From: an uncultured Bryocella sp.
GTDB taxonomy: Bacteria > Acidobacteriota > Terriglobia > Terriglobales > Acidobacteriaceae
Direction: 5' to 3'
NCBI GenBank assembly: GCA_964235515.1
Contig: CAXSBL010000006.1
Coordinates: 3,186-67,185 of the forward strand
Length of the DNA stretch: 64,000 nt
A model generated the notes under the pieces. It was not told where the DNA came from and did not search any database. It saw nothing but the letters and a program-made list of their open reading frames with translations. Numbering within the stretch: position 1 is the stretch's first letter; every line of letters begins with the position of its first letter. Position numbers and translations under genes: made by a program. Of this stretch, positions 51,714 to 64,000 are shown one piece after another.

Positions 51714-53405
51714 ATGCTGCTGGAATTGAGAGCGGAAAACTTCGCGGTGATCGATGCCACGGCCGCGGAGTTTGGGCCGGGACTGAATCTGCTCACCGGC
51801 GAAACGGGCGCGGGAAAATCGATTCTGATCGACGCGTTGGTCATGCTGCTGGGGGGCAAGGCGTCCAGCGACCTGGTGCGGCACGGGGCGGAAAAGGCGG
51901 TGCTGAGCTGCGTCTTCGAGTCCACGCCCGGGACCGAAGCCGTGCTCGAGGCCAATGGGCTCGACTTTGACGGCGACCAGGTCCTGTTACGGCGTGAGGT
52001 GGGTGCGAACGGCAAAGGGCGTGTTTTTGTGAACAATCAGCCGGCCACGGTTGGTGCCCTGCGGCAGCTGGCGCCGGAGCTGGCGCTGGTTCATGCGCAG
52101 TCGGAGACGATGATCGCCTTCGATGCGACGCAGCAGCAGCTCTTGTTGGACCGTTCGGCGCAGATCGGCACAGAGTTCACGGCGGCGGCGTACCGGCACT
52201 GGCGCGCCTTACGGGCGGAGCTCGATGAGTTGCAGAGCGCAGAGGGGGAAAGGCTGCGACAGATCGATCTTTGGAGCTTTCAAGCGAAGGAGATCGAGTC
52301 GGCGGGGATCGCCGATGCCGAGGAAGACGTCCGGCTGGAGTCTGAGAAGCGGCTGCTGGTGAATGCGGAGCGGCTTTTTTCCGGCGCCAACGCCGCACTG
52401 CAGCTGCTGTATGAGGATGAGGTCTCTGCGGAGGGACTTCTGGGCGGAGCGCTTCGGCATTTGGAAGATCTAGTCCGATTTCAGCCGGATTTTGCGGAAA
52501 CAGCCCAACAGCTACGCACGGCCCAGGCAGCGATCGAGGATGTGGCGGCGAGCCTGCGCGATTTCGCCGACAGAGCGACGGCCTCGCCCGAGCGGCAGGC
52601 CGAGGTGGAAGACAGGCTGGCGCTGTTGGATCGCTTGAAGCGAAAGTACGGCCCGACGCTGGCGCAGGTGGTGGCCTTTGGGAGCGCGGCGGCGGAGAAG
52701 CTGAACGATCTGGAGAACCGCGACGCGCGTTCGGCGGAGCTGGCAGGGCAGATGCTCTTGGCGGCCTCCAGCTACCGGCAAGCGGCCGAGGCTTTGACGG
52801 CCAGGCGCCAGGCAGCGGCCGCAAAACTGGCATCACGGGCGGAGCGGCAGATGAACGAGCTGGCGATGAAGGCTAGGTTCACCATCGAGGTCAGCCCCCA
52901 AACGGATGAGGCCGGGTGGAGCGCGGCGGGATGGGACGCGGTGGCGTACCGGATTGCAACCAACGCCGGAGAGCCGCTGAAGCCGCTCACAGAGATCGCC
53001 TCCGGCGGGGAGATGTCGCGCGTAATGCTGGCGTTGAAGGTGGCCGTGGAGGAGCAGGCCTCCGGACTGGCCCGGAAACGGGGCGTAGCCTCCCCGCGCA
53101 CGCTGGTCTTTGACGAGATCGATATCGGGATCGGCGGTCGCGCGGCGGAGGCGGTGGGGCAAAAATTAAAGGCGCTCGCGCGCACACAGCAGGTGCTCTG
53201 CATTACGCATCTGCCGCAGATTGCGGCGTTCGCGGACCGCCACCTGCTGATCGAAAAGAGCGAGCGCGCAGGCCGGACGCGCACCGGGGTACGTACCGCC
53301 TCCGACGGCGAAAGTGTGGAGGAGATTGCCCGCATGCTCTCCGGAGCCAGTCTCACCGAGGCCTCAAGGCTCCATGCGAGACAAATGGTGGAGGCCAGCC
53401 GTTAA
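51714..53405 (+). CDS. recN: DNA repair protein RecN
   Basis: LTGETGAGKSILIDAL, IASGGEMSRVMLA, FDEIDIGIGG, ITHLPQIAA. Confidence 0.96.
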   Translation: MLLELRAENFAVIDATAAEFGPGLNLLTGETGAGKSILIDALVMLLGGKASSDLVRHGAEKAVLSCVFESTPGTEAVLEANGLDFDGDQVLLRREVGANGKGRVFVNNQPATVGALRQLAPELALVHAQSETMIAFDATQQQLLLDRSAQIGTEFTAAAYRHWRALRAELDELQSAEGERLRQIDLWSFQAKEIESAGIADAEEDVRLESEKRLLVNAERLFSGANAALQLLYEDEVSAEGLLGGALRHLEDLVRFQPDFAETAQQLRTAQAAIEDVAASLRDFADRATASPERQAEVEDRLALLDRLKRKYGPTLAQVVAFGSAAAEKLNDLENRDARSAELAGQMLLAASSYRQAAEALTARRQAAAAKLASRAERQMNELAMKARFTIEVSPQTDEAGWSAAGWDAVAYRIATNAGEPLKPLTEIASGGEMSRVMLALKVAVEEQASGLARKRGVASPRTLVFDEIDIGIGGRAAEAVGQKLKALARTQQVLCITHLPQIAAFADRHLLIEKSERAGRTRTGVRTASDGESVEEIARMLSGASLTEASRLHARQMVEASR

Positions 53406-53478
53406 GGCGGGCGCGGGCCAAGCAACACGCGCTGGCTCCCATGCCTCCAAAGTGATTGAAGTATAAGGAGCACAACTG

Positions 53479-53625
53479 ATGGCTGAGACAAAGAAATGCG
53501 CACACCCACTTTGCAGCTGCATGGTGAACGACAAGAAATATTGCTCACAGATGTGTGAGGACTCCCAAGCTGTAACTACACTGGGTTGTGATTGTCAACA
53601 TGCGGGATGCGCGGGCCGTACCTAG
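53479..53625 (+). CDS. Bacterial metallothionein-like protein (48 aa)
   Basis: AAGGAG RBS; MAETKKCAHPLCSCMVNDKKYCSQMCEDSQAVTTLGCDCQHAGCAGRT, 8 Cys + 2 His; below the ORF-track size cutoff. Confidence 0.8.
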   Translation: MAETKKCAHPLCSCMVNDKKYCSQMCEDSQAVTTLGCDCQHAGCAGRT

Positions 53626-53730
53626 AGCCGGAATACCGGTGGTTCGTAGAGGTCCCGCACAAATCCTGGAAGGGATCGGCGGGGCCATTTCACTCTAAGT
53701 CCCCCTCGGTTTGGAGGTATACTGGTCGAT

Positions 53731-54753
53731 GTGACCACCCCCACCCTCCAGCCCGTTGATGTGCAGCCGGAAGCTGGCTCTGCACCCCATACCAAGCGTG
53801 TTCTGCTTCTGAAGCCCCGTGGCTTTTGCGCTGGTGTTGTGCGGGCGATCGACATAGTCCGCATCGCCCTCGACACCTTTGGCGCACCGATATATGTGCG
53901 CAAAGAAATCGTGCATAACTCGTATGTTGTGAACGATTTGGCCCAGAAGGGCGCTATCTTCGTCAATGAGTTGGACGAGGTTCCGGCCGGTGCCCGCGTC
54001 ATTTACTCCGCCCATGGTGTGTCTCCGGCTGTTCGGCAGCGTGCCAAGGATCGTGATCTGAAGGTGATCGACGCAACCTGCCCCCTCGTGACAAAGGTTC
54101 ACGTCGAGGCCATCAAGTTCGCCAAGCAAGGATATTCGCTTGTTTTGGTCGGCCATCGCGACCATGAAGAGGTAGAAGGCACCCAGGGCGAAGCCCCGGA
54201 TGTGACCCAGGTCGTTTCAACGCCGGAAGAGGTTGCCGAATTGGTGGTGCCTGATCCGAACAAGGTCGCTTACCTGACGCAGACGACGCTGTCGCTGGAT
54301 GAAGCCAGCACAATGATTCAGGCGCTCAAGGAGCGATTTCCTAGCATCACCGGCCCGCACGCGCAAGACATCTGCTACGCAACGGAGAACCGGCAGACGG
54401 CCGTGAAGAATGTAGCGCATGGGGCCGATCTGGTGCTGGTGGTCGGGTCGCGCAACAGTTCCAACTCCAATCGCCTTGTGGAGGTCTCCCAAAATCTGGG
54501 AACCGGTTCCTACCTCATTGACAAGGCCGAGGACATCCAGCCTGAGTGGCTGGAGTCGGTTTCTACCGTGGCGATCACGGCCGGAGCCTCCGCGCCGGAA
54601 ATTCTTGTGCAGCAGGTCGTGACTTTTCTGCAAGGCCGGGGTTTCTCCTCTGTGGAGGAGGTGGAGGTAATGCCGGAGAACGTACGTTTCGGCCTTCCGC
54701 CTGAAATCGTCCAGGCAATTGCATCCGCTCCCCCGATTCACCCGGCACCCTAG
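53731..54753 (+). CDS. ispH: 4-hydroxy-3-methylbut-2-enyl diphosphate reductase
   Basis: PRGFCAGVVRAI, SAHG, DATCPLVTKVH, DICYATENRQ, SSNSNRL, TAGASAPE. Confidence 0.97.
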   Translation: MTTPTLQPVDVQPEAGSAPHTKRVLLLKPRGFCAGVVRAIDIVRIALDTFGAPIYVRKEIVHNSYVVNDLAQKGAIFVNELDEVPAGARVIYSAHGVSPAVRQRAKDRDLKVIDATCPLVTKVHVEAIKFAKQGYSLVLVGHRDHEEVEGTQGEAPDVTQVVSTPEEVAELVVPDPNKVAYLTQTTLSLDEASTMIQALKERFPSITGPHAQDICYATENRQTAVKNVAHGADLVLVVGSRNSSNSNRLVEVSQNLGTGSYLIDKAEDIQPEWLESVSTVAITAGASAPEILVQQVVTFLQGRGFSSVEEVEVMPENVRFGLPPEIVQAIASAPPIHPAP

Positions 54754-54832
54754 CTCATCCACTGCTGCTCGCCGACTCGGGTTTTATTCCGGGTCAACGC
54801 TGGGCGTGGGTGTTTTTCGCAAACGAGAGTAC

Positions 54833-56848
54833 ATGAGTTCAATGGACGGAAGCCCTCAAGGAACGAAGCAGCCCCGGTTTGGGCGGCTCGACCTGGGAAT
54901 GGATCAGGTAAAAAAGGCCATCGATCAGTCGGTGACCTGGCTGCTGGGTCAACAGGACGAGCAAGGCTACTGGTGCGGCGAGCTTGAAGCCGACAGCATG
55001 CTTGAGGCCGACTATATCTTTCTCCATACCCTGTTGGGTACGGGAGACCGTGGCCGGATGGAGCGCTGCGCCAACGAGATCCTCCGCCATCAAAACGACG
55101 ATGGCGGCTGGAGCATCTACCCCGGCGGGCCATCCAACGTCAGCTATGGCGTGAAGTGCTACCTGGCCCTGAAGCTGATGGGCCGAGGAATCGATGATCC
55201 GATCATGGTGCGAGCGCGGGCCAACGTGCTCTCCCTTGGTGGCGTGGTCGAGTGCAATACCTTCACCAAAATCTATCTTTGCACCCTCGGGCAGTATGAC
55301 TACGATGCCGTACCGGCGGTACCGCCGGAGATCGTCCTGTTCCCGAACTGGTTTTATTTCAACATCTATGAGATCAGTTCGTGGTCGCGAGGTATCCTGG
55401 TACCGCTTTCGATCCTGTATGCAAAAAAACCGCTGAGGCAACTGACGCCCGAGCAGGGGATCGATGAACTGTTCGTCGGTGGGCGTGCCAGTTCCAAGCT
55501 GCACCTCCGCTGGGACCGCAAACCCGTTTCCTGGCGCAACTTCTTTCTATTTTTCGATCGCATGACGCACTGGGCGGAGCGGTTTCACATCCGTCCGCTG
55601 CGCCGCTTGGCGCTGCAGCGCGCCGAACAGTGGATGCTGGACCGGTTCGAGCGTTCGGATGGCCTCGGGGCGATTTACCCCGCGATGTTGAACTCGATTG
55701 TGGCGTTGCACAATCTCGGGTATTCGCAGGACGACCCGCATTTTATTCGCGCGATGGATGAGTTTGAAAAGCTGGCTATCGATGAGCCGGAAGGCACGCC
55801 CGCGTACCCAATCCCGACGCTGCGGATGCAACCCTGTTTTTCCCCGGTGTGGGATACGGCCCAGGTGATGACGGTGCTGGGTGAGGCAGGTCTTTCCAAG
55901 ACCGACCCTTGCCTGTTGAAAGCAGCTGACTGGATCTTGGCGCGCGAGGTACGGCACAAGGGCGACTGGGCCGAGAAGGTCAAGAACGTGGAGCCGGGCG
56001 GCTGGTACTTCGAGTTCAGCAATGAGTTTTACCCGGATGTTGATGATACGGGGCAGGTTCTGCTCGGTCTGAAAGCTGTCGATAACCCCCGTGAGCGCTA
56101 CCAGCACGAAGTGGAACAGCGTGCCGTGAACTGGGTGATGGCGATGCAGTGCCGCGAGGGCGGTTGGGCGGCCTTCGACAAGGACAACACCAAGAGCATC
56201 TTCCAGTACATTCCCTTTGCCGATCACAATGCGATGCTCGATCCGCCGACGGTGGACGTTACCGGGCGCATCCTGGAGATGCTGGCTGCCTACGGCTACA
56301 CGCGGCGGGATCCGCGCGTGGAAAAGGCCGTGCAGTTTGTCCTGCGCGAGCAGGAGTCGGACGGCTCATGGTTCGGTCGCTGGGGTGTGAATTTTCTTTA
56401 CGGCACCTTCTTGGTGCTGCGTGGTCTACAGGCGATGGAGTACAGCTACCTGGAGACACCGGTGCAGCAGGCGGCTGAGTGGATACGCATGGTGCAGAAT
56501 CCGGATGGGGGTTGGGGGGAGAACTGCGGGACCTACGACGATGCGACAGGTAAAGGTGTGGGGCCCTCGACTCCTTCGCAGACCGCGTGGGCGCTGCTCG
56601 GCTTGCTGGCTGCGAACGACACCCGGTCGGACTCAGTGGCCAAGGGTGTTCGCTGGTTGACCGAGCGGCAGCACGAGGATGGCAGCTGGGATGAGTTGAT
56701 TCCGGGACGTAACGGCGAGAGCTACTACACTGGAACGGGTTTTCCGCGGGTGTTTTATCTTGGCTATCATCTTTACAAGCAATATTTTCCGCTTTTGGCT
56801 TTGACGACCTATCGCAAGGCATTGGAGCGCGAGGCAGCTGAAGCGTAA
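54833..56848 (+). CDS. shc: Squalene-hopene cyclase
   Basis: YPDVDDTG (DxDD), QW-type repeats QNDDGGW, QESDGSWFGRWG, QNPDGGWGE, YYTGTGFP. Confidence 0.96.
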   Translation: MSSMDGSPQGTKQPRFGRLDLGMDQVKKAIDQSVTWLLGQQDEQGYWCGELEADSMLEADYIFLHTLLGTGDRGRMERCANEILRHQNDDGGWSIYPGGPSNVSYGVKCYLALKLMGRGIDDPIMVRARANVLSLGGVVECNTFTKIYLCTLGQYDYDAVPAVPPEIVLFPNWFYFNIYEISSWSRGILVPLSILYAKKPLRQLTPEQGIDELFVGGRASSKLHLRWDRKPVSWRNFFLFFDRMTHWAERFHIRPLRRLALQRAEQWMLDRFERSDGLGAIYPAMLNSIVALHNLGYSQDDPHFIRAMDEFEKLAIDEPEGTPAYPIPTLRMQPCFSPVWDTAQVMTVLGEAGLSKTDPCLLKAADWILAREVRHKGDWAEKVKNVEPGGWYFEFSNEFYPDVDDTGQVLLGLKAVDNPRERYQHEVEQRAVNWVMAMQCREGGWAAFDKDNTKSIFQYIPFADHNAMLDPPTVDVTGRILEMLAAYGYTRRDPRVEKAVQFVLREQESDGSWFGRWGVNFLYGTFLVLRGLQAMEYSYLETPVQQAAEWIRMVQNPDGGWGENCGTYDDATGKGVGPSTPSQTAWALLGLLAANDTRSDSVAKGVRWLTERQHEDGSWDELIPGRNGESYYTGTGFPRVFYLGYHLYKQYFPLLALTTYRKALEREAAEA

Positions 56849-56913
56849 GACTTCGGCGTTTCATCTGATACCGGGCTGATGCAAGGCCCGGGGCAGTGCA
56901 AAGGAGTTTTCGG

Positions 56914-58080
56914 ATGGCCGTTCCCGTATCGCAGGCGTTTACTGTCGCGAGCTACGTGTTGAAGCAGAAATTCAAAGGGCGCAAGCGGTACCCGCTGGTG
57001 CTGATGCTGGAGCCGCTGTTTCGCTGCAACCTGGCGTGCGCCGGCTGCGGCAAGATCCAGTACCCCGCGCACATTCTGAAGGCGGAACTGACTCCGGAGG
57101 ACTGCTTCCGGGCCGCTGAAGAGTGCGGCACGCCCATGGTAGCCATCCCGGGCGGTGAACCTCTGTTGCATCCGCGGATGCCGGAGATCGTGGCCGGCCT
57201 GGTGGAGCGCAAGAAGTATGTGTACATGTGCACGAACGCGCTGCTTCTTAAAGAGAAGCTTCACCTTTTCAAACCGAGCAAGTACCTCAGCTTCTCCGTT
57301 CATGTGGACGGCGAGCGGGAGCACCACGACTTCGGCGTGTGCCGCGAGGGTGGCTACGACATTGCCCTTGAAGGCGTTCGCGCCGCGGTAGCTGCGGGAT
57401 TCCGCGTAACGACCAATACGACTTTGTTCGATGGAGCGGATCCGAACTCAGTGCGCCGGCATTTTGACCAGATGATGGAAGCCGGTGTCGAATCGATGAT
57501 GGTTTCGCCCGGTTACACCTACGACAAGGCGCCGGATCAGAACCACTTTCTCGGTCGTGCCAAGAGCCGGAAATTATTCAGCGCCATCCTTTCAAACCGC
57601 AAGAAGCATTGGGAGTTCAATGCTTCACCCATGTTTATGGAATTTCTGATGGGCCGGCAGGAGCTGCGCTGCACCCCTTGGGGCATGCCGACGTACTCGA
57701 TTTTCGGCTGGCAAAAGCCCTGCTATCTACTGCAGGACGGCTATGCGGACACCTTTCAGGAGTTGATGGACGAGGTCGAGTGGTCCAACTACGGCACCGA
57801 GAGCGGCAATCCTCGCTGCGCCAACTGCATGGTGCACTCGGGCTACGAAGCTTCGGGCGTGAACTACACCTTTGGATCGTTGAAGGGCTTCTATCAGACA
57901 GCCAAGGCTTTTCTGAACCGCAAATACGATGATCCCAGAGCGCAGGCTCTGTTGAACGATTGGAAGCCGGAAGGGCACTTTCCCCTGGTGCAGATTTCGC
58001 CCGGTGGCGTAACTAAACCAACGCCGGTGGTGGTGACGACATCGGTCGATAGCTCACTAGCAGGCGTGGCGGGGGACTGA
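56914..58080 (+). CDS. hpnH: Adenosylhopane synthase, radical SAM
   Basis: LMLEPLFRCNLACAGCGKI, GGEPLLHP, CTPWGMP, CANCMVHSGYE. Confidence 0.93.
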   Translation: MAVPVSQAFTVASYVLKQKFKGRKRYPLVLMLEPLFRCNLACAGCGKIQYPAHILKAELTPEDCFRAAEECGTPMVAIPGGEPLLHPRMPEIVAGLVERKKYVYMCTNALLLKEKLHLFKPSKYLSFSVHVDGEREHHDFGVCREGGYDIALEGVRAAVAAGFRVTTNTTLFDGADPNSVRRHFDQMMEAGVESMMVSPGYTYDKAPDQNHFLGRAKSRKLFSAILSNRKKHWEFNASPMFMEFLMGRQELRCTPWGMPTYSIFGWQKPCYLLQDGYADTFQELMDEVEWSNYGTESGNPRCANCMVHSGYEASGVNYTFGSLKGFYQTAKAFLNRKYDDPRAQALLNDWKPEGHFPLVQISPGGVTKPTPVVVTTSVDSSLAGVAGD

Positions 58081-58081
58081 C

Positions 58082-58552
58082 ATGGCGACCTTGGGACAGG
58101 AACACCTGAAAGTCGAGCAATTGGAGCACGCCAGCCCTGACGAATTGGAGCACGCCGCAGGCCGCGAGCGTGAAAACCTGGAAGGCTGGATCCCGGCCCT
58201 GGCTACCGATTCCGAGATCCGTGAGGCGCTCGAGAAAGCGTTTGATTACCGTGGCAATGTCACGGTAACGCGCAAGGATGGCAGTCAGATTGAAGGCTAT
58301 CTTTACGATCGTCGTACCGGCGCTACGCTTGCGGATTCAATGATCCGCATCATCCCCTCGCCACCTAAAGGTGTACCCGCTGAGACAACCGTACAACGGC
58401 TGATGATTCCGTATGCCGATGTAGCGGCACTGCAGTTCTCCGGCCGCGACACGGCGGCAGGCAAGACCTTTGAGGCGTGGGTGCGCAAATATTGGGAGAA
58501 GAAGGCAGCCGGCGAGAAAAACATTCAGATTACCCCTGAAGCGCTGGATTAG
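58082..58552 (+). CDS. Hypothetical protein inside the hopanoid operon
   Basis: 1-2 bp spacing to both neighbours; natural composition. Confidence 0.75.
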   Translation: MATLGQEHLKVEQLEHASPDELEHAAGRERENLEGWIPALATDSEIREALEKAFDYRGNVTVTRKDGSQIEGYLYDRRTGATLADSMIRIIPSPPKGVPAETTVQRLMIPYADVAALQFSGRDTAAGKTFEAWVRKYWEKKAAGEKNIQITPEALD

Positions 58553-58554
58553 CT

Positions 58555-59559
58555 GTGCGGCTGTTTGTTACCGGAGCGACTGGATTTATTGGAGCGCATG
58601 TCGCCCGACTGGCGGCGGAGCGTGGCGCCGAGCTACGGTTGCTTGTCCGGCCATCCTCGAATCGTGCCTTTCTACCTGCCTCGGCGGATCTGGTAACGGG
58701 GGATTTGCGGGATCCTGATCGTTTTGCTTCAGCATTGCAGGGTTGCGATGCGCTGATCCACGTCGCTGCGGATTACCGCCTGTGGGTGCCCGACCCGGCT
58801 GAGATGTACAAGGCCAACGTCGAGGGAACGCGTCGCCTGCTACAGGTGGCGCACGCTGCGGGTGTGCCCAGGGTGGTGTACACCTCGAGCGTGGCCACGA
58901 TGGGCTTCCGCAAAGATGGAACCCTCGTGGATGAAACTGCGCCGGTGACGGAAGCCGACATGATCGGGCATTACAAGCGCTCGAAGTGGATGGCGGAGCA
59001 GGTGGCGTTGCAAGCAGGAAGGCTGGGGCAGCAGGTGATCGTGCTGAATCCAACGACGCCGATCGGATCGCTTGACGCGAAGCCCACGCCCACAGGACGC
59101 ATCGTGGTGGACTTCCTCAATCGCAACTTTCCAGCCTATGTAAAAACCGGATTGAACCTTGTGGATGTGCGCGAGATTGCGCGCACGCACCTGCACGCCC
59201 TGGAAGCTGGCCGGCCTGGCGAGCGCTACATCCTGGGCGGCGAGAATTTGACCCTGAAGCAGATCCTGGACCGGCTGGCGAGGCTAACCGGGTTGTCTTC
59301 GCCCAAGGTGCAGGTGCCGCATGCGGCGGCGATGGCGTTTGCGTTTTTTGACGAGACGATCACCGGTAAGCTGCGCGGCAAGGAACCGCGTGCCACGGTG
59401 GAAGCGGTCCGCATGGGACGCAAAATGATGTTTGCGAGCTCGGCCAAGGCGGAACGGGAGTTGGGCTTCCAGGTCCTGCCGGTGGATGAGGCTCTTGCGG
59501 AGGCGTGCCGGTGGTTTGTCGCCAACGGCTACGCCCCAGCGCCGCCGCAGCAATCATGA
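58555..59559 (+). CDS. hpnA: Hopanoid-associated NAD-dependent epimerase/dehydratase
   Basis: TGATGFIG, HVAADYRLWVPDP, YKRSK, NPTTPIG, GERYILGGENLTL. Confidence 0.9.
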   Translation: MRLFVTGATGFIGAHVARLAAERGAELRLLVRPSSNRAFLPASADLVTGDLRDPDRFASALQGCDALIHVAADYRLWVPDPAEMYKANVEGTRRLLQVAHAAGVPRVVYTSSVATMGFRKDGTLVDETAPVTEADMIGHYKRSKWMAEQVALQAGRLGQQVIVLNPTTPIGSLDAKPTPTGRIVVDFLNRNFPAYVKTGLNLVDVREIARTHLHALEAGRPGERYILGGENLTLKQILDRLARLTGLSSPKVQVPHAAAMAFAFFDETITGKLRGKEPRATVEAVRMGRKMMFASSAKAERELGFQVLPVDEALAEACRWFVANGYAPAPPQQS

Positions 59560-60242
59560 AGATTTCAGTTCCGTTCGCGATTATCGCTGCGCTGCCGCGT
59601 GAGGTGCGGGGTCTGGTTGGGAGAACGCGCCCTGAACCGGCGCTGTTGCGTTCGGGAGTCCACCTGTACCGCCTTCCGGCCGCGGTGGTGGTGACGGCCG
59701 GCATGGGTGCCTCGCGTGCGTCGCTGGCGTTTGCTTCCGTTCTTGAGGCGTTTACACCGGAATGCGTTATCTCAGCCGGACTGGCCGGCGGTTGCGGCGC
59801 TTCGGCTGCCGCGGGGATGGTGTATGAGGCGGGGGTGGTGGTAAGCGCGCAGACAGGCGAGCGGTTCCGTACACACGACGGCGACGCATCCCAGGTGCTA
59901 GTTACGACCGCGACCATAGCCGGCGTGCGGGAGAAAGCCCGGCTCGCCGCATCCTATGCTGCGACCATGGTCGATATGGAAGCGGCAACGGTGGCGCGGC
60001 TTTCGGCAGCGCATGGGCTAAGCTTCCGGGCGGTGAAGGCGATCTCCGATCCGCATGACTTTGAACTTGCATCGCTGTCTCGCTTCGCGGGGACGCATGG
60101 ACAGTTCAGAACAGCGGCATTCGCGATGCACACGGCGCTCCGGCCGCACCATTGGCGGCACGCTGCGCGGCTCGGCAGGGTGAGCAACCGTGCACTGAAA
60201 GCGATGAGCGCGCGGCTTTTTGAGATCATTTCCCAGACCTGA
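59556..60242 (+). CDS. hpnG: Hopanoid-associated nucleoside phosphorylase
   Basis: AALPREV, SAGLAGG, VDMEAA, VKAISD (PNP/MTAN family); ATGA-coupled to hpnA. Confidence 0.75.
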   Translation: MKISVPFAIIAALPREVRGLVGRTRPEPALLRSGVHLYRLPAAVVVTAGMGASRASLAFASVLEAFTPECVISAGLAGGCGASAAAGMVYEAGVVVSAQTGERFRTHDGDASQVLVTTATIAGVREKARLAASYAATMVDMEAATVARLSAAHGLSFRAVKAISDPHDFELASLSRFAGTHGQFRTAAFAMHTALRPHHWRHAARLGRVSNRALKAMSARLFEIISQT

Positions 60243-60283
60243 GCGGTAAGGGCTGCGTCTCACGAAGAGTGTGAGGTGGCTTT

Positions 60284-60724
60284 GTGACCTGGTTCGCCTA
60301 TCTGATCGCACTCCTGGCAGGAATTGCGAATCCCTTCCAGTCGGCTACAAACGGACAGCTGAACAAACAGTTTCAACAGCCGGTATGGGCGGGCATCGCG
60401 GTGTATGCCACGGGTCTGGTCGGTATGTTGGTTGTGCAGGCTTTTGTGCGGCAGCCCCTGCCGGCTTTGCACCTTCGTTCCGTGAGCTGGTGGGCCTGGA
60501 TGGGAGGTTTGATCAGCATTGCCTCCACGATGGCAGGATTGACCCTGGTACAAAAGTTGGGTGCAGGGACGTTCACATGCCTCAGCATCACCGCGGCTCT
60601 GGTCGTTTCGGTGATTTTGGATCAGTTTGGGTTGGTTGGCCTTAAGCAGCATACGGCCTCGTCCGGACGGCTGATTGGGTGTGCTCTGCTGATTGCCGGT
60701 GTATGGCTGGTGAACCGGTCTTAA
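60284..60724 (+). CDS. YdcZ/DUF606-type DMT family membrane protein
   Basis: QSATNGQL, WWAWMGG, DQFGLVG; five TM segments. Confidence 0.8.
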   Translation: MTWFAYLIALLAGIANPFQSATNGQLNKQFQQPVWAGIAVYATGLVGMLVVQAFVRQPLPALHLRSVSWWAWMGGLISIASTMAGLTLVQKLGAGTFTCLSITAALVVSVILDQFGLVGLKQHTASSGRLIGCALLIAGVWLVNRS

Positions 60725-60765
60725 CGAATGCAGGCATGGAAATGCCCGATACACTGAAGGTGATC

Positions 60766-61857
60766 ATGTCCAATGCACTTCCCAGCACCATGCGCGCGGC
60801 TGTCTACCGCGCCCCCGATGAGATCGTTACCGAGAGTCTTGACTTACCGCAGATTGGTCCCGGCGAGGTGCTGGTGCGGCTGGCCGCCTGTGGCATTTGC
60901 GGGACGGATCTGAAGAAAATTCACACCGGGTCTCATCCGGGTCCGCGGGTTTTTGGGCATGAGATGGCGGGCACGATTGCGGCCGTGGGCAGAGACGTGC
61001 GGGGCTTTGCTGTAGGCGATCGCGTGATGGCGTTCCACCATGTGCCGTGCGGCCAATGCTTCTACTGCCGGAAGCAGACCTTTGCGCAATGTGAGCAGTA
61101 CAAGAAAGTCGGGACGACTGCGGGGCTTGGGCCGGCTGCGGGTGGTGGGTTTGCGGAATATATCCGGGTGATGGATTGGATCGTTGGCGATGGGGTTACG
61201 CCGGCGGGGCTGATCCATGTGCCGGACGATATTCCCTTCGAGCAGGCCGCGTTTATTGAGCCAGTGAACACCTGTTTTAAGGCGATTCGGCTGCTCGCGC
61301 TGGAGCCGGACGATACGGTGCTGGTGGTCGGGCAGGGGAGTATTGGAATTATTCTGGCGGCGCTGGCACGGCGTACGGGGGCTACCGTGCTGACGTCGGA
61401 CCTGTATCCGGAGCGTCATGCGGTGGCGGCCGGGTTTGGGCTGGAGCATCCGCTGGATGCTCGGGGAGATGTGGTGGGAGCCTGCAGGGCGGCCACGGAT
61501 GGGCGTGGAGCGGATGTGGCGTTGGTTGCGGTCGGCTCTGATGCGCTGATCGGAATGGCGATGGGGGCCATTCGGCCGGGTGGTCGGGTGATGCTGTTTG
61601 CGAGTACCCAGCATGGGACGGCGCCGTTTGATCCGGCAGCGGTTTGCATGGAGGAGAAGACCCTGATGGGGTCCTACTCGGCCTCAGTGGCGATTCAGCA
61701 GGAGGGGATCGATCTGGTGTTTGAGGGGTATCGCACCGGCGAGTTGGACTTTACGCGGCTGATCTCGCACCGGTTTCCGGTGGAGCGGGCTGCCGAGGCT
61801 GTGCGGCTGGCCTCGAACCCGCAGCCGGATTCGCTCAAGATCATGTTGCAGCTTTAG
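60766..61857 (+). CDS. Zn-dependent medium-chain (polyol-type) dehydrogenase
   Basis: CGICGTD, GHEMAG, CGQCFYCRKQTFAQC structural Zn site, GQGSIG; start uncertain (60736-60790). Confidence 0.9.
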   Translation: MSNALPSTMRAAVYRAPDEIVTESLDLPQIGPGEVLVRLAACGICGTDLKKIHTGSHPGPRVFGHEMAGTIAAVGRDVRGFAVGDRVMAFHHVPCGQCFYCRKQTFAQCEQYKKVGTTAGLGPAAGGGFAEYIRVMDWIVGDGVTPAGLIHVPDDIPFEQAAFIEPVNTCFKAIRLLALEPDDTVLVVGQGSIGIILAALARRTGATVLTSDLYPERHAVAAGFGLEHPLDARGDVVGACRAATDGRGADVALVAVGSDALIGMAMGAIRPGGRVMLFASTQHGTAPFDPAAVCMEEKTLMGSYSASVAIQQEGIDLVFEGYRTGELDFTRLISHRFPVERAAEAVRLASNPQPDSLKIMLQL

Positions 61858-61964
61858 GGGCACGCTGTCCCAGCGTACTTTCGTCGTAAAGTCTTTGAAA
61901 TAAAGCGTTTAGATTCGCTGGTTCCATGCAGGACCCGGACGTGAGCATGGGTCTCACGGTTAGG

Positions 61965-62249
61965 TCAGCGATGCCTACTTAGGAGCACGGTTCCGGCGAC
62001 GAACAGGGTGCCTGCGGCTCCCCCAAGCAGGTAGATCGCGTGACGGTAGGCTGCCTGTACCTGCGGCGGGGTAGCCCGGGTGCTGTCCAGGCATTGGGCG
62101 CAGCCTTGCCCGTGAACCGTGGGTGTACAGAAAAACGAGCATAGAAAGAGAATGGTCGTCAGGCCCAGGCGGCTTGAGACTCCCCGCCACGTTGGCGTCT
62201 CTGGCTGACGGTTGAACTGTACCAAGCGCACCTCAGCGTCTAAAGCCAT
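61965..62249 (-). CDS. Small membrane protein with CxxC motif
   Basis: Signal-like segment, QGCAQC, C-terminal TM; downstream of the oxidase genes; start uncertain. Confidence 0.55.
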   Translation of the reverse strand: MALDAEVRLVQFNRQPETPTWRGVSSRLGLTTILFLCSFFCTPTVHGQGCAQCLDSTRATPPQVQAAYRHAIYLLGGAAGTLFVAGTVLLSRHR

Positions 62250-62417
62250 CAGGACTTTGTTTGTGAGTGCGGCACGGATGAAGCCGCTCCCTCCGGTCCT
62301 GTCACATCGGTCTTGGGTGGAACTTACCTGTCCAGTTCAAAGTTTGAACTTGGTTTCGGGTGTAAAAGAGCTATGAGCCGGGGAGCTATGAGTTAGAACC
62401 TTAGCGAGGAGCGTAAT

Positions 62418-63185
62418 CTACTGAGCGTATTCGAGGAGGGCGAAGAGGAAGATCCACAGAACGCCCATTACATGCCAGTACCAGACGGCGGAGTCGACCA
62501 CGACCTGCCGCGTTGCCATTTGGCGGGAGTAGACCAGGAGCCACAGCGCCCACATGAGGCCACCGATACCGAGAAAGAGATGGGCGGCGTGGGTGAAGGT
62601 GATGAGATAGAAGAAGTGGCTGCTCGGGTTGGAGCGAAAGTAGACGTGGGCGGCGGCTAGTTGGTCCCAGGCGATCCACTGGCCTACGAGGAAGACGAGT
62701 CCCAGGGCGAGTGTGATCGAGAGCCAGATCATGGCGCGGGTGGAGGTTGGGCGGCCGTAGCCGAACCACTCGTCCATAACGTGGTGCTCGTGAAACATGA
62801 CGCGACGGGCGGCTTCGGCCGTGGCGGAGCTTACGACGATGACGGCGGTGTTGAGCCAAAGAATCGACGGAATGGCGGTCGGAAGCCACTCATTGATGTA
62901 CCGGTCGTAGGCGTCGAAGTGGCCGTTGGCCTTGGTCACGAAGAAGACGCTGATGAGTGCGACGAAGAACATCAGATCGCCGCCGAGGGCGAAGAACATG
63001 CCGACGCGTGCCTGCGCGAGGCGTTCACGGGGACCGCGGCGCCCGGTGGGGCGGTCTTTCCAGTTTTCGTTGTCGCCGTTGCCGCCGGTGCGTTTGTCGG
63101 TGGGGGGGCGACGGCCTGAGCCGTTATCTCCTTCACCTGTGTGGTGGCGGCGGTCGATCTCCGGGGGCGTGAGAGTCGTCGGCAT
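62418..63185 (-). CDS. Cytochrome c oxidase subunit III
   Basis: LWLNTAVIVVSS, FLVGQ, FFYLITFTHAAH, WYWHVMGVLWIFLF; start trimmed to ATG 63185. Confidence 0.9.
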   Translation of the reverse strand: MPTTLTPPEIDRRHHTGEGDNGSGRRPPTDKRTGGNGDNENWKDRPTGRRGPRERLAQARVGMFFALGGDLMFFVALISVFFVTKANGHFDAYDRYINEWLPTAIPSILWLNTAVIVVSSATAEAARRVMFHEHHVMDEWFGYGRPTSTRAMIWLSITLALGLVFLVGQWIAWDQLAAAHVYFRSNPSSHFFYLITFTHAAHLFLGIGGLMWALWLLVYSRQMATRQVVVDSAVWYWHVMGVLWIFLFALLEYAQ

Positions 63186-63226
63186 GGGTGCCTTTTGTCG
63201 CGCGATGGGGTGCGTGCAGAGACAGA

Positions 63227-64000
63227 TTACTCCCGTTGGGGAGGGATGTCGTGCTCGATCACAGCATCCGGTGTCCATTGGGGTGAAAAGGTGTTGTCGG
63301 ACAGACTGTAGGAGCAAGGTTGGCGGTGAACGATAGCAATGACGGCGGGATTTTGGGGGTCGAGGGCGGCCGGAGCCCACTCCAGGGTCGTTGCCTGCCA
63401 AGGATTTTCCTCAGACTCGCGGGGACGCCGGAGCGCTAATACGAGATTGACGAGGAACGGCAGCTGAAAGAGGGCAAGGCCGAGGGCCGAGGCGCTGATG
63501 TGGCGCTGCATGCCCATGGTGCCGGCGAGCAGGTCGGTGGCGGGACCAGGAATGGAGGCGAGTTGGGCGTAGTGGCGGGGCTCGCTGGTGAGGCCGGTGA
63601 GGTGCATGGGGAGGAACGTGCTGTAGGAGAACAAGATTGTTCCCCAGAAGTGGATTTTGCCCAGGCCTTCAGAAAGGCGGCGGTGGAACAGGATCGGCGC
63701 CCAGTAGTACAGGCCGCAGAAGAGACCGAAGACGCCGGCCATGGCCATGATGAGATGGAAGTGGGCTACGACGAAGAAGGTGTTATGGAGATATTCGTCG
63801 AGGATGGGCTGGGCGAGGATGGGGCCGCTGAGACCGCCGGCGACGAAGAGTGAGACGAAGCCGAGGGCGAAGAGCATGGGCGTGGTGAAGCGTGGGCGGG
63901 AGCGCCAGACAGTGGCCAGCCAGCTGAGGACCTTGGCGGCGGAGGGAATGGCGATAGCAATCGAGGAGGCGCTGAAGACGGTGCCGGCAAATGGGTTCAT
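63227..64000 (-). CDS. Cytochrome c oxidase subunit I, C-terminal part (5' end outside the window)
   Basis: IAIPSAAKVLSW, GGLSG, LHNTFFVVAHFH heme ligands, ENPWQATTLEW. Confidence 0.93.
   Translation of the reverse strand: MNPFAGTVFSASSIAIAIPSAAKVLSWLATVWRSRPRFTTPMLFALGFVSLFVAGGLSGPILAQPILDEYLHNTFFVVAHFHLIMAMAGVFGLFCGLYYWAPILFHRRLSEGLGKIHFWGTILFSYSTFLPMHLTGLTSEPRHYAQLASIPGPATDLLAGTMGMQRHISASALGLALFQLPFLVNLVLALRRPRESEENPWQATTLEWAPAALDPQNPAVIAIVHRQPCSYSLSDNTFSPQWTPDAVIEHDIPPQRE

Follow-up and report, generated by a model that had tools for sequence, protein, structure and literature searches.

The 64,000-nt stretch of DNA analyzed here (the window, in which all coordinates are given) belongs to an uncultured Bryocella sp. 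of the Acidobacteriaceae (GenBank assembly GCA_964235515.1, contig CAXSBL010000006.1, positions 3,186 to 67,185) and carries, between 53.7 and 61.9 kb, a plus-strand string of hopanoid genes that ends in ug1, a gene for a zinc-dependent medium-chain dehydrogenase/reductase (MDR). Our preferred reading, plausible but tentative, is that ug1 may be the NAD half of an old redox pair, completed by a second MDR named ug2, which is accessory to squalene/hopanoid lipid synthesis, and that in the Acidobacteriaceae it most likely acts on the C35 side chain. Two linkage facts bear on this proposal. When the ancestral gene block split in the Acidobacteriaceae, ug1 was kept with hpnG and not with ug2, which favours a role on the product of HpnG; elsewhere, including genomes in which the side-chain pathway was not found, its companions are still ug2, hpnA and squalene genes, which favours a role independent of ribosylhopane. 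Because of both facts, together with the predicted NAD/NADP split between the two proteins, an accessory redox pair appears to be the most economical reading.

The ug1 product is a complete, soluble MDR, with matches to PF08240 (ADH_N, 92 bits, cut-off 23.5) and PF00107 (ADH_zinc_N, 69 bits, cut-off 31.8), and it has the domains, the zinc ligands and the GxGxxG motif with acidic residue that define the zinc-dependent members of the superfamily. Alignment to the solved structures 4cpd and 2dq4 places the catalytic zinc ligands at C45, H65, E66 and E165 ('IEP' motif) and the structural zinc at C95, C98, C101 and C109, all conserved in 28–31 of 31 clade members, and an additional Cys42 is invariant in the clade. 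Judged from these ligands, the catalytic site is of the polyol/threonine dehydrogenase type and does not have the Cys of classical alcohol dehydrogenases. The nucleotide-binding motif reads GQGSIG at residues 189–194 in the window protein (motif positions 190, 192 and 195 across the clade), and strand beta-2 ends in D212 in 30 of the 31 members and in Glu in the remaining one, while ug2 has Gly at this position (Val in this genome), followed by Lys or Arg. By a rule of thumb that reads this single Asp, ug1 is predicted to be of the NAD(H) type and ug2 of the NADP type.

The MDR fold of ug1 is settled by full-length matches to solved zinc MDRs (E-values from 5e-37 to 2e-27), the closest being the Thermus alcohol dehydrogenase 4cpd (5e-37). 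Other relatives of known structure are the threonine dehydrogenase 2dq4, the xylitol dehydrogenase 7y9p, the ketose reductase 1e3j and the galactitol-1-phosphate 5-dehydrogenase 4a2c, with which ug1 shares the Cys/His/Glu plus Glu catalytic zinc, the four-Cys structural lobe, the GxGxxG motif and the Asp at the end of beta-2. Unlike them, ug1 falls into a clade of its own (SH-aLRT 98) and stays far under the cut-offs of the curated models: it passes no curated equivalog model in an NCBIfam search, the best match being scyllo-inosose 3-dehydrogenase (IolM, NF041097, 163 bits against 450), and L-threonine 3-dehydrogenase (Tdh; TIGR00692, 127 bits against 458, and NF003808, 137 against 380) and GatD (118 against 550) score lower still. 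These generic matches below cut-off are consistent with ug1 being a common soluble dehydrogenase of polyols or amino alcohols that has nothing to do with lipids and owes its place only to inherited gene order, and so are three Granulicella loci in which ug1 follows SPFH/SPOR or GH31 genes and not hpnG. Such an explanation is nevertheless improbable, the least probable of those weighed here, as the linkage to hpn and squalene genes is kept over several acidobacterial families at 45–55% identity despite rearrangements, and ug1 is strongly co-distributed with HpnH.

The nearest outgroups of the ug1 clade include a 602-aa fusion of a nucleotidyltransferase (NTP-transferase) with an MDR (representative P0150, 35% identity), a domain arrangement from which ug1 differs in lacking the nucleotidyltransferase. 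From its domains P0150 is presumably TarI/TarJ-like (CDP-ribitol), and we take the TarJ type to reduce a pentulose phosphate to a pentitol phosphate; this hints that the ancestry of the clade may lie among pentitol/pentulose-phosphate reductases. A fusion of HpnG with an MDR was sought among the long representatives, where the 602-aa match turned out to be this NTP-transferase–MDR protein instead. The clade also has distant representatives (P0124–P0143), one of them labelled Armatimonadota.

In mechanistic terms, the zinc, with Cys45, His65 and Glu66 as its ligands and Glu165 close by, would polarise a hydroxyl or carbonyl group of the substrate, as in the rest of the family, and hydride would pass to or from NAD. 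In this operon the target would most likely be a C35 side-chain hydroxyl or carbonyl, either in ribosylhopane or in the derived tetrol, and oxidation (a secondary alcohol to a ketone, or a lactol to a lactone, 'ribonylhopane') would be at least as likely as a reduction forming bacteriohopanetetrol (BHT). The first-pass annotation had likened the expected chemistry to the reduction of aldoses to polyols by sorbitol- and ribitol-type MDRs, an analogy that proved imprecise: members of the polyol/threonine branch for the most part convert between a secondary alcohol and a ketone (polyol and ketose), and aldose reduction is typically carried out by aldo-keto reductases, although aldehyde-reducing zinc MDRs do exist. 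Ribonylhopane itself has been reported in mutants of R. palustris.

The genes of the plus-strand string, from which the genomic context of ug1 can be read, are the following.

53731–54753, plus strand: ispH, HMBPP reductase (NF002189, 459 bits, cut-off 444; Pfam LYTB), first gene of the conserved block.
54719–56848, plus strand (longest open reading frame): shc, squalene-hopene cyclase (SHC) (TIGR01507, 704 bits, cut-off 431).
56896–58080, plus strand: hpnH, adenosylhopane synthase, a radical SAM enzyme (TIGR03470, 519 bits, cut-off 225).
58082–58552, plus strand: ug3, conserved hypothetical protein of 156 aa with no Pfam or NCBIfam match.
58555–59559, plus strand: hpnA, hopanoid-associated short-chain dehydrogenase/reductase ('sugar epimerase') (TIGR03466, 469 bits, cut-off 368).
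59556–60242, plus strand: hpnG-like nucleosidase/phosphorylase (Pfam PNP_UDP_1, 45 bits; TIGR03468, 55 bits, below its cut-off of 187).
60284–60724, plus strand: ug5, half-size drug/metabolite transporter (DMT) of the YdcZ family, 146 aa (PF04657, 111 bits, cut-off 24).
60766–61857, plus strand: ug1, NAD-type zinc MDR by prediction, 363 aa (ADH_N, ADH_zinc_N).

Judged from this layout, the eight genes ispH-shc-hpnH-ug3-hpnA-hpnG-ug5-ug1 form one plus-strand operon. Spacing is very tight in its central part, with 1 bp between hpnH and ug3, 2 bp between ug3 and hpnA, and the stop of hpnA overlapping the start of hpnG as ATGA at 59556–59559. A gap of exactly 41 bp separates the hpnG stop at 60242 from the GTG start of the DMT gene, and a second gap of 41 bp the DMT stop from the ATG at 60766, so that the earlier description of a small DMT protein 41 bp after hpnG on the same strand, followed at short distance by a complete zinc MDR, is borne out in every detail by the reading frames and domain scores. 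A scan of 53000–62600 for promoter and terminator consensus sequences returned sites no commoner than in shuffled sequence, and none convincing between hpnG, the DMT gene and ug1. The sequencing runs that matched 58000–62400 were all of DNA; the best of them, from a lichen metagenome, contains nearly all of the sequence and may be where it comes from. Since the genes downstream lie convergently on the minus strand, ug1 is the last gene of the operon; these comprise a 94-aa open reading frame (61965–62249) and, within 62418–64000, frames that by eye resemble subunits III and I of cytochrome c oxidase.

Two start sites in this string call for comment. The open frame of ug1 extends over 60679–61857, its longest version beginning at a GTG (60679) inside the DMT gene, and the likely start is the ATG at 60766, preceded by GAAGGTGA, a good ribosome-binding site. 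The product is thus likely to have 363 aa, because orthologs align only from residue ~24–33 of the long frame, most of the called orthologs have 355 or 363 aa, and the ATG is well served by its ribosome-binding site. For shc the real start is probably at ~54833, since the TIGR01507 match begins at residue 62 of the longest frame.

The partner gene ug2 is found in the same genome on contig C4, where it heads a stretch (locus L108, 7720–12252) that continues with hpnC (290 bits), hpnD (213 bits) and hpnE (402 bits). The two proteins belong to the same superfamily and have the same zinc ligands, but are only 34% identical, and in the tree they form separate clades (SH-aLRT 100 for ug2 and 98 for ug1) which are not each other's nearest. 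In the Acidobacteriaceae the old ug1-ug2 pair is split, ug1 standing with hpnG and ug2 with hpnC.

We have compared 80 loci of this family, from Granulicella, Bryocella, Edaphobacter, Terriglobus, Tunturiibacter and relatives, in which ug1 is 69–90% identical. The hpnG gene lies directly upstream of ug1 (<300 bp) in 57 of the 80 and is separated from it by the DMT gene alone in 11, which makes the linkage tight in 68; it is further off in 6 and was not detected near ug1 in another 6, two of which have too little upstream sequence. The order hpnA, hpnG, dehydrogenase recurs in 66 of the 80 loci, an arrangement therefore far beyond chance, and 58 of these 66 have the full string from ispH to ug1, ispH itself occupying this place in most of the 80. 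Eight loci keep hpnG and ug1 paired with hpnA, hpnH and shc not within 10 kb; as they come from close relatives, they may reflect a single event. By comparison, ug2 is directly downstream of ug1 in none of the 80 loci, and in one it is found 8.5 kb away. The expectation that the gene would be linked to hpn clusters in other genomes is thus well supported, tight linkage being seen in these 68 loci and in three other acidobacterial families.

A distinct picture emerges from 14 loci of the ug1 clade in six other families, where the constant neighbour of ug1 is ug2, immediately downstream in 13 of the 14, and not hpnG. Five loci, from three families, show the order hpnA-hpnG-ug1-ug2-hpnC-hpnD. Six loci of one family (f45; L110, L112, L114–L116 and L120) read ispH-hpnA-ug1-ug2 with no hpnG, followed by hpnD/C in five, the contig of L112 ending before; in this family HpnG and HpnH are on other contigs where they exist. 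In two loci of family f43 the pair stands beside proline dehydrogenase and hpnH-hpnA-hpnG are elsewhere (shown in one of the two), and the remaining locus holds a divergent ug1 copy, alone and without the structural-zinc cysteines. Compared across families, these gene orders suggest that the ancestral block was probably ispH-shc-hpnH-ug3-hpnA-hpnG-ug1-ug2-hpnC-hpnD-hpnE, broken at different points in each lineage.

Such a history is also compatible with another explanation, possible if rather unlikely, in which ug1 and ug2, together with hpnA, act on the squalene/prenyl branch, perhaps on an isoprenoid intermediate that bears a hydroxyl group, the adjacency to hpnG being a remnant of the ancestral ispH...hpnA-hpnG-ug1-ug2-hpnCDE block. 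Family f45, which keeps ispH-hpnA-ug1-ug2-hpnD/C with no hpnG in between, fits it well, as do its three genomes where a search for HpnH found nothing and SHC was either absent or weakly matched, and HpnC/D-type genes were found in all five genomes tested. Yet in the Acidobacteriaceae ug1 left ug2 and hpnCDE and stayed with hpnG, in f43 the pair is beside neither squalene nor hopanoid genes, and the HpnC/D/E route has no known step that calls for an MDR.

The distribution of ug1 was analyzed over 401 evenly sampled Acidobacteriota genomes, taking an E-value of at most 1e-55 for ug1 and a score above the curated cut-off for HpnH; many of the sampled genomes are metagenome-assembled, and a gene given as not found is one not found in them, which is not proof of absence. 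The ug1 clade is set apart by a clear gap in score, its members having at least 317 bits (46–84% identity) and other MDRs at most 200. Both ug1 and HpnH occur in 43 genomes, ug1 without HpnH in 4, HpnH without ug1 in 34 (33 if the unpublished G196 is left aside) and neither in 320. The co-occurrence anticipated by the first-pass annotation is therefore seen in one direction, with HpnH in 43 of the 47 genomes that carry ug1, but fails in the other, since 34 of the 77 genomes with HpnH have no ug1 and four have ug1 with no HpnH found.

At the level of families the agreement is closer. HpnH was matched in 122 of 122 Acidobacteriaceae genomes and exceeded the cut-off in none of 28 of a sister family in the same order, tallies that become 121 of 121 and 0 of 21 without the unpublished genomes (G111 in the Acidobacteriaceae; G029, G034, G035, G036, G038, G040 and G061 in the sister family). 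A protein search for ug1 in 16 sister-family genomes retrieved no ortholog, nor does any occur among the 10 that remain without G029, G034, G035, G036, G038 and G040. On these counts ug1 tracks the capacity for extended hopanoids well, although kin genomes are not independent.

The genomes that break this pattern are informative. Four genomes (G229, G232, G366 and G432, 94–100% complete) carry ug1 with all catalytic residues, adjoining ug2, and in these no HpnH was found, while SHC was not found in three and gave a weak, divergent match in G366. In three of the four the pair is also beside ispH and hpnA, with HpnC/D next in the two whose contigs are long enough. When SHC was sought in five genomes, one of them HpnH-positive, TIGR01507, a C-terminal-domain protein query and PF13243 all found nothing. 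On the other side, an HpnG-like gene adjoins hpnH in three of five HpnH-positive genomes without ug1 that were checked, in one case with hpnA in between. Three genomes of f45 keep the squalene-synthase-type genes and the three oxidoreductases, with no HpnH found and SHC absent or weakly matched.

These results bear directly on the proposal that ug1 reduces the open-chain aldehyde of ribosylhopane, the product of HpnG, to BHT, at least in the Acidobacteriaceae. In its favour are the absence of an assigned enzyme for this step, the position of ug1 after hpnG in 68 of 80 loci and its persistence with hpnG when the cluster breaks, the failure to find it in the sister family lacking HpnH, and its closest solved relative, 4cpd, which we take to be an alcohol dehydrogenase active on aldehydes and primary alcohols. 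A BHT reductase, though, would be expected in every BHT producer that has hpnH and hpnG, and would not be maintained without HpnH and SHC, and ug1 departs from both patterns: it is not necessary, as 34 of 77 HpnH-positive Acidobacteriota do without it, several having hpnH-(hpnA)-hpnG as direct neighbours, and it is not specific, as four genomes keep it where no HpnH was found and SHC is absent or weak. In addition, ug1 shares its third ligand, Glu, with secondary-alcohol dehydrogenases, and the Asp of the NAD type contrasts with the cell-free activity of M. organophilum, which is credited to Bodlenner 2015 and reportedly used NADPH. Chloracidobacterium (C. thermophilum), reported to make BHT and BHT cyclitol ether, has no ug2 and no evident cluster organisation, which also argues against such a role. 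We thus hold it quite unlikely that ug1 is the BHT-forming reductase: the earlier suggestion that ug1 or HpnA fills this gap retains the operon link to hpnG and the distribution in the sister family, but not necessity, specificity or a matching cofactor, and leaves ug1 as a weak, lineage-restricted candidate, not the universal enzyme and at best a lineage-specific one.

The gene arrangement has in fact already been published. Sinninghe Damsté et al. (2017, Front Microbiol 8:968; PMC5462960), in the passages that deal with these genes, describe three acidobacterial hopanoid gene clusters: cluster A comprises ug2, hpnC, hpnD and hpnE, cluster B comprises shc, hpnH and ug3 together with ispA in one place of the text and ispH in another, and cluster C comprises hpnA, hpnG and ug1. 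In Table S1 of that paper ug1 is a 'Zn-dependent alcohol dehydrogenase (ca. 370 AA)', ug2 a 'Zn-binding alcohol dehydrogenase (ca. 350 AA)', ug3 a 'hypothetical protein (ca. 150 AA)' and ug5 a 'transporter (ca. 140 AA)', the function of all four being given as 'not established'. The window gene agrees with this ug1 in family, size class (363 aa), position after hpnA-hpnG (with ug5 between) and origin in an Acidobacteriaceae genome (subdivision 1, the published ug1 coming directly after hpnA-hpnG in subdivisions 1, 2 and 3), and ug3 after hpnH and the 140-aa transporter ug5 are present here too; by that description the window consists of clusters B and C with ug5 inserted. Neither the cofactor split between ug1 and ug2 nor the occurrence of the pair in genomes where HpnH was not found and SHC is absent or weak appears in those passages.

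For the conversion of ribosylhopane to BHT the same passages propose HpnA and not ug1, while also stating, with reference to Schmerk 2015 and Welander 2012, that B. cenocepacia can make BHT without hpnA and that Rhodopseudomonas lacks the gene. Later sources have not closed the matter, and the earlier statement that the enzyme is not firmly assigned still holds, as it is unassigned in a 2025 Geobiology paper and in a 2026 review, where the step is 'predicted nonenzymatic'; our literature searches found no functional assignment of ug1. That the BHT-forming reductase is HpnA, or the putatively NADP-type ug2, and not ug1, gains something from the published proposal, from the motif of ug2 and from the adjacency of hpnH, hpnA and hpnG in lineages that have no ug1 or have it elsewhere. 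Considering the dispensability of hpnA and the production of BHT by C. thermophilum without ug2, we find this very doubtful.

Returning to our preferred reading of an accessory redox pair acting, in the Acidobacteriaceae, on the C35 side chain, several observations weigh against it. The four genomes that keep ug1-ug2 and HpnC/D intact, where no HpnH was found and SHC is absent or weak, imply that the pair needs no C35 side chain there, and in f43 it stands beside proline dehydrogenase, away from the hpn genes. All of the linkage is confined to one phylum, so that inherited gene order accounts for part of it. Moreover, the substrate proposed for ug1 is a prediction from sequence and gene context, and the cofactor assignment, being a rule of thumb, counts on the same side.

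Among the neighbouring genes, the hpnG-like protein owes its name to its position and to the 2017 paper, as its score on TIGR03468 is only 55 bits against 187, and it scores nearly as high (48 bits) on a methylthioadenosine/S-adenosylhomocysteine (MTA/SAH) nucleosidase model. The acidobacterial 'HpnG' evolves fast, with 33–76% identity compared with 70–90% for its neighbours. Its action as a hydrolase or as a phosphorylase would affect what is passed on to the following enzyme. The ug3 protein is acidic and keeps its place, at 62–85% identity, in most of the Acidobacteriaceae loci compared, and the short gaps on either side of its gene mark it as a tightly coupled partner of HpnH. The ug5 protein is a clear member of the DMT_YdcZ family, its match covering positions 2–140 of the 140 of the PF04657 model. 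Its gene is present in 13 of the 80 loci, all close to the clade of the window, which indicates a late clade-specific insertion outside the conserved module; for the same reason the suggestion that it exports adenine released by HpnG is unsupported. Four metagenome-assembled genomes labelled as Verrucomicrobiae (L031), Lichenicola (L045), Verrucomicrobia (L053) and Novosphingobium (L090) carry an acidobacterial hopanoid operon and a single acidobacterial-type HpnH, in one case with HpnH coordinates equal to those of a sample genome of the same genus, and are probably mislabelled or contaminated Acidobacteriaceae bins.

Bacteriohopanepolyols, from which geohopanes derive, are major membrane lipids of bacteria, and the step from ribosylhopane to BHT is, in the literature of 2025–2026, the only one in core side-chain synthesis still without a gene. 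A bolder form of our proposal, which we consider unlikely, is that ug1, by itself or as the NAD member of a pair that oxidises and then reduces, would be the Acidobacteriaceae's own ribosylhopane-processing enzyme, forming BHT or determining the C35 side chain's stereochemistry or its oxidation state; if true, it would be the first enzyme assigned to the last hopanoid side-chain step that lacks one. The predicted NAD/NADP split of ug1 and ug2, and the survival of the pair with squalene-synthase genes where no HpnH was found and SHC is absent or weak, may serve as guides for experiments. A candidate clustered with the pathway makes the question of the missing enzyme directly testable, and ug2 and hpnA belong in the same comparison.

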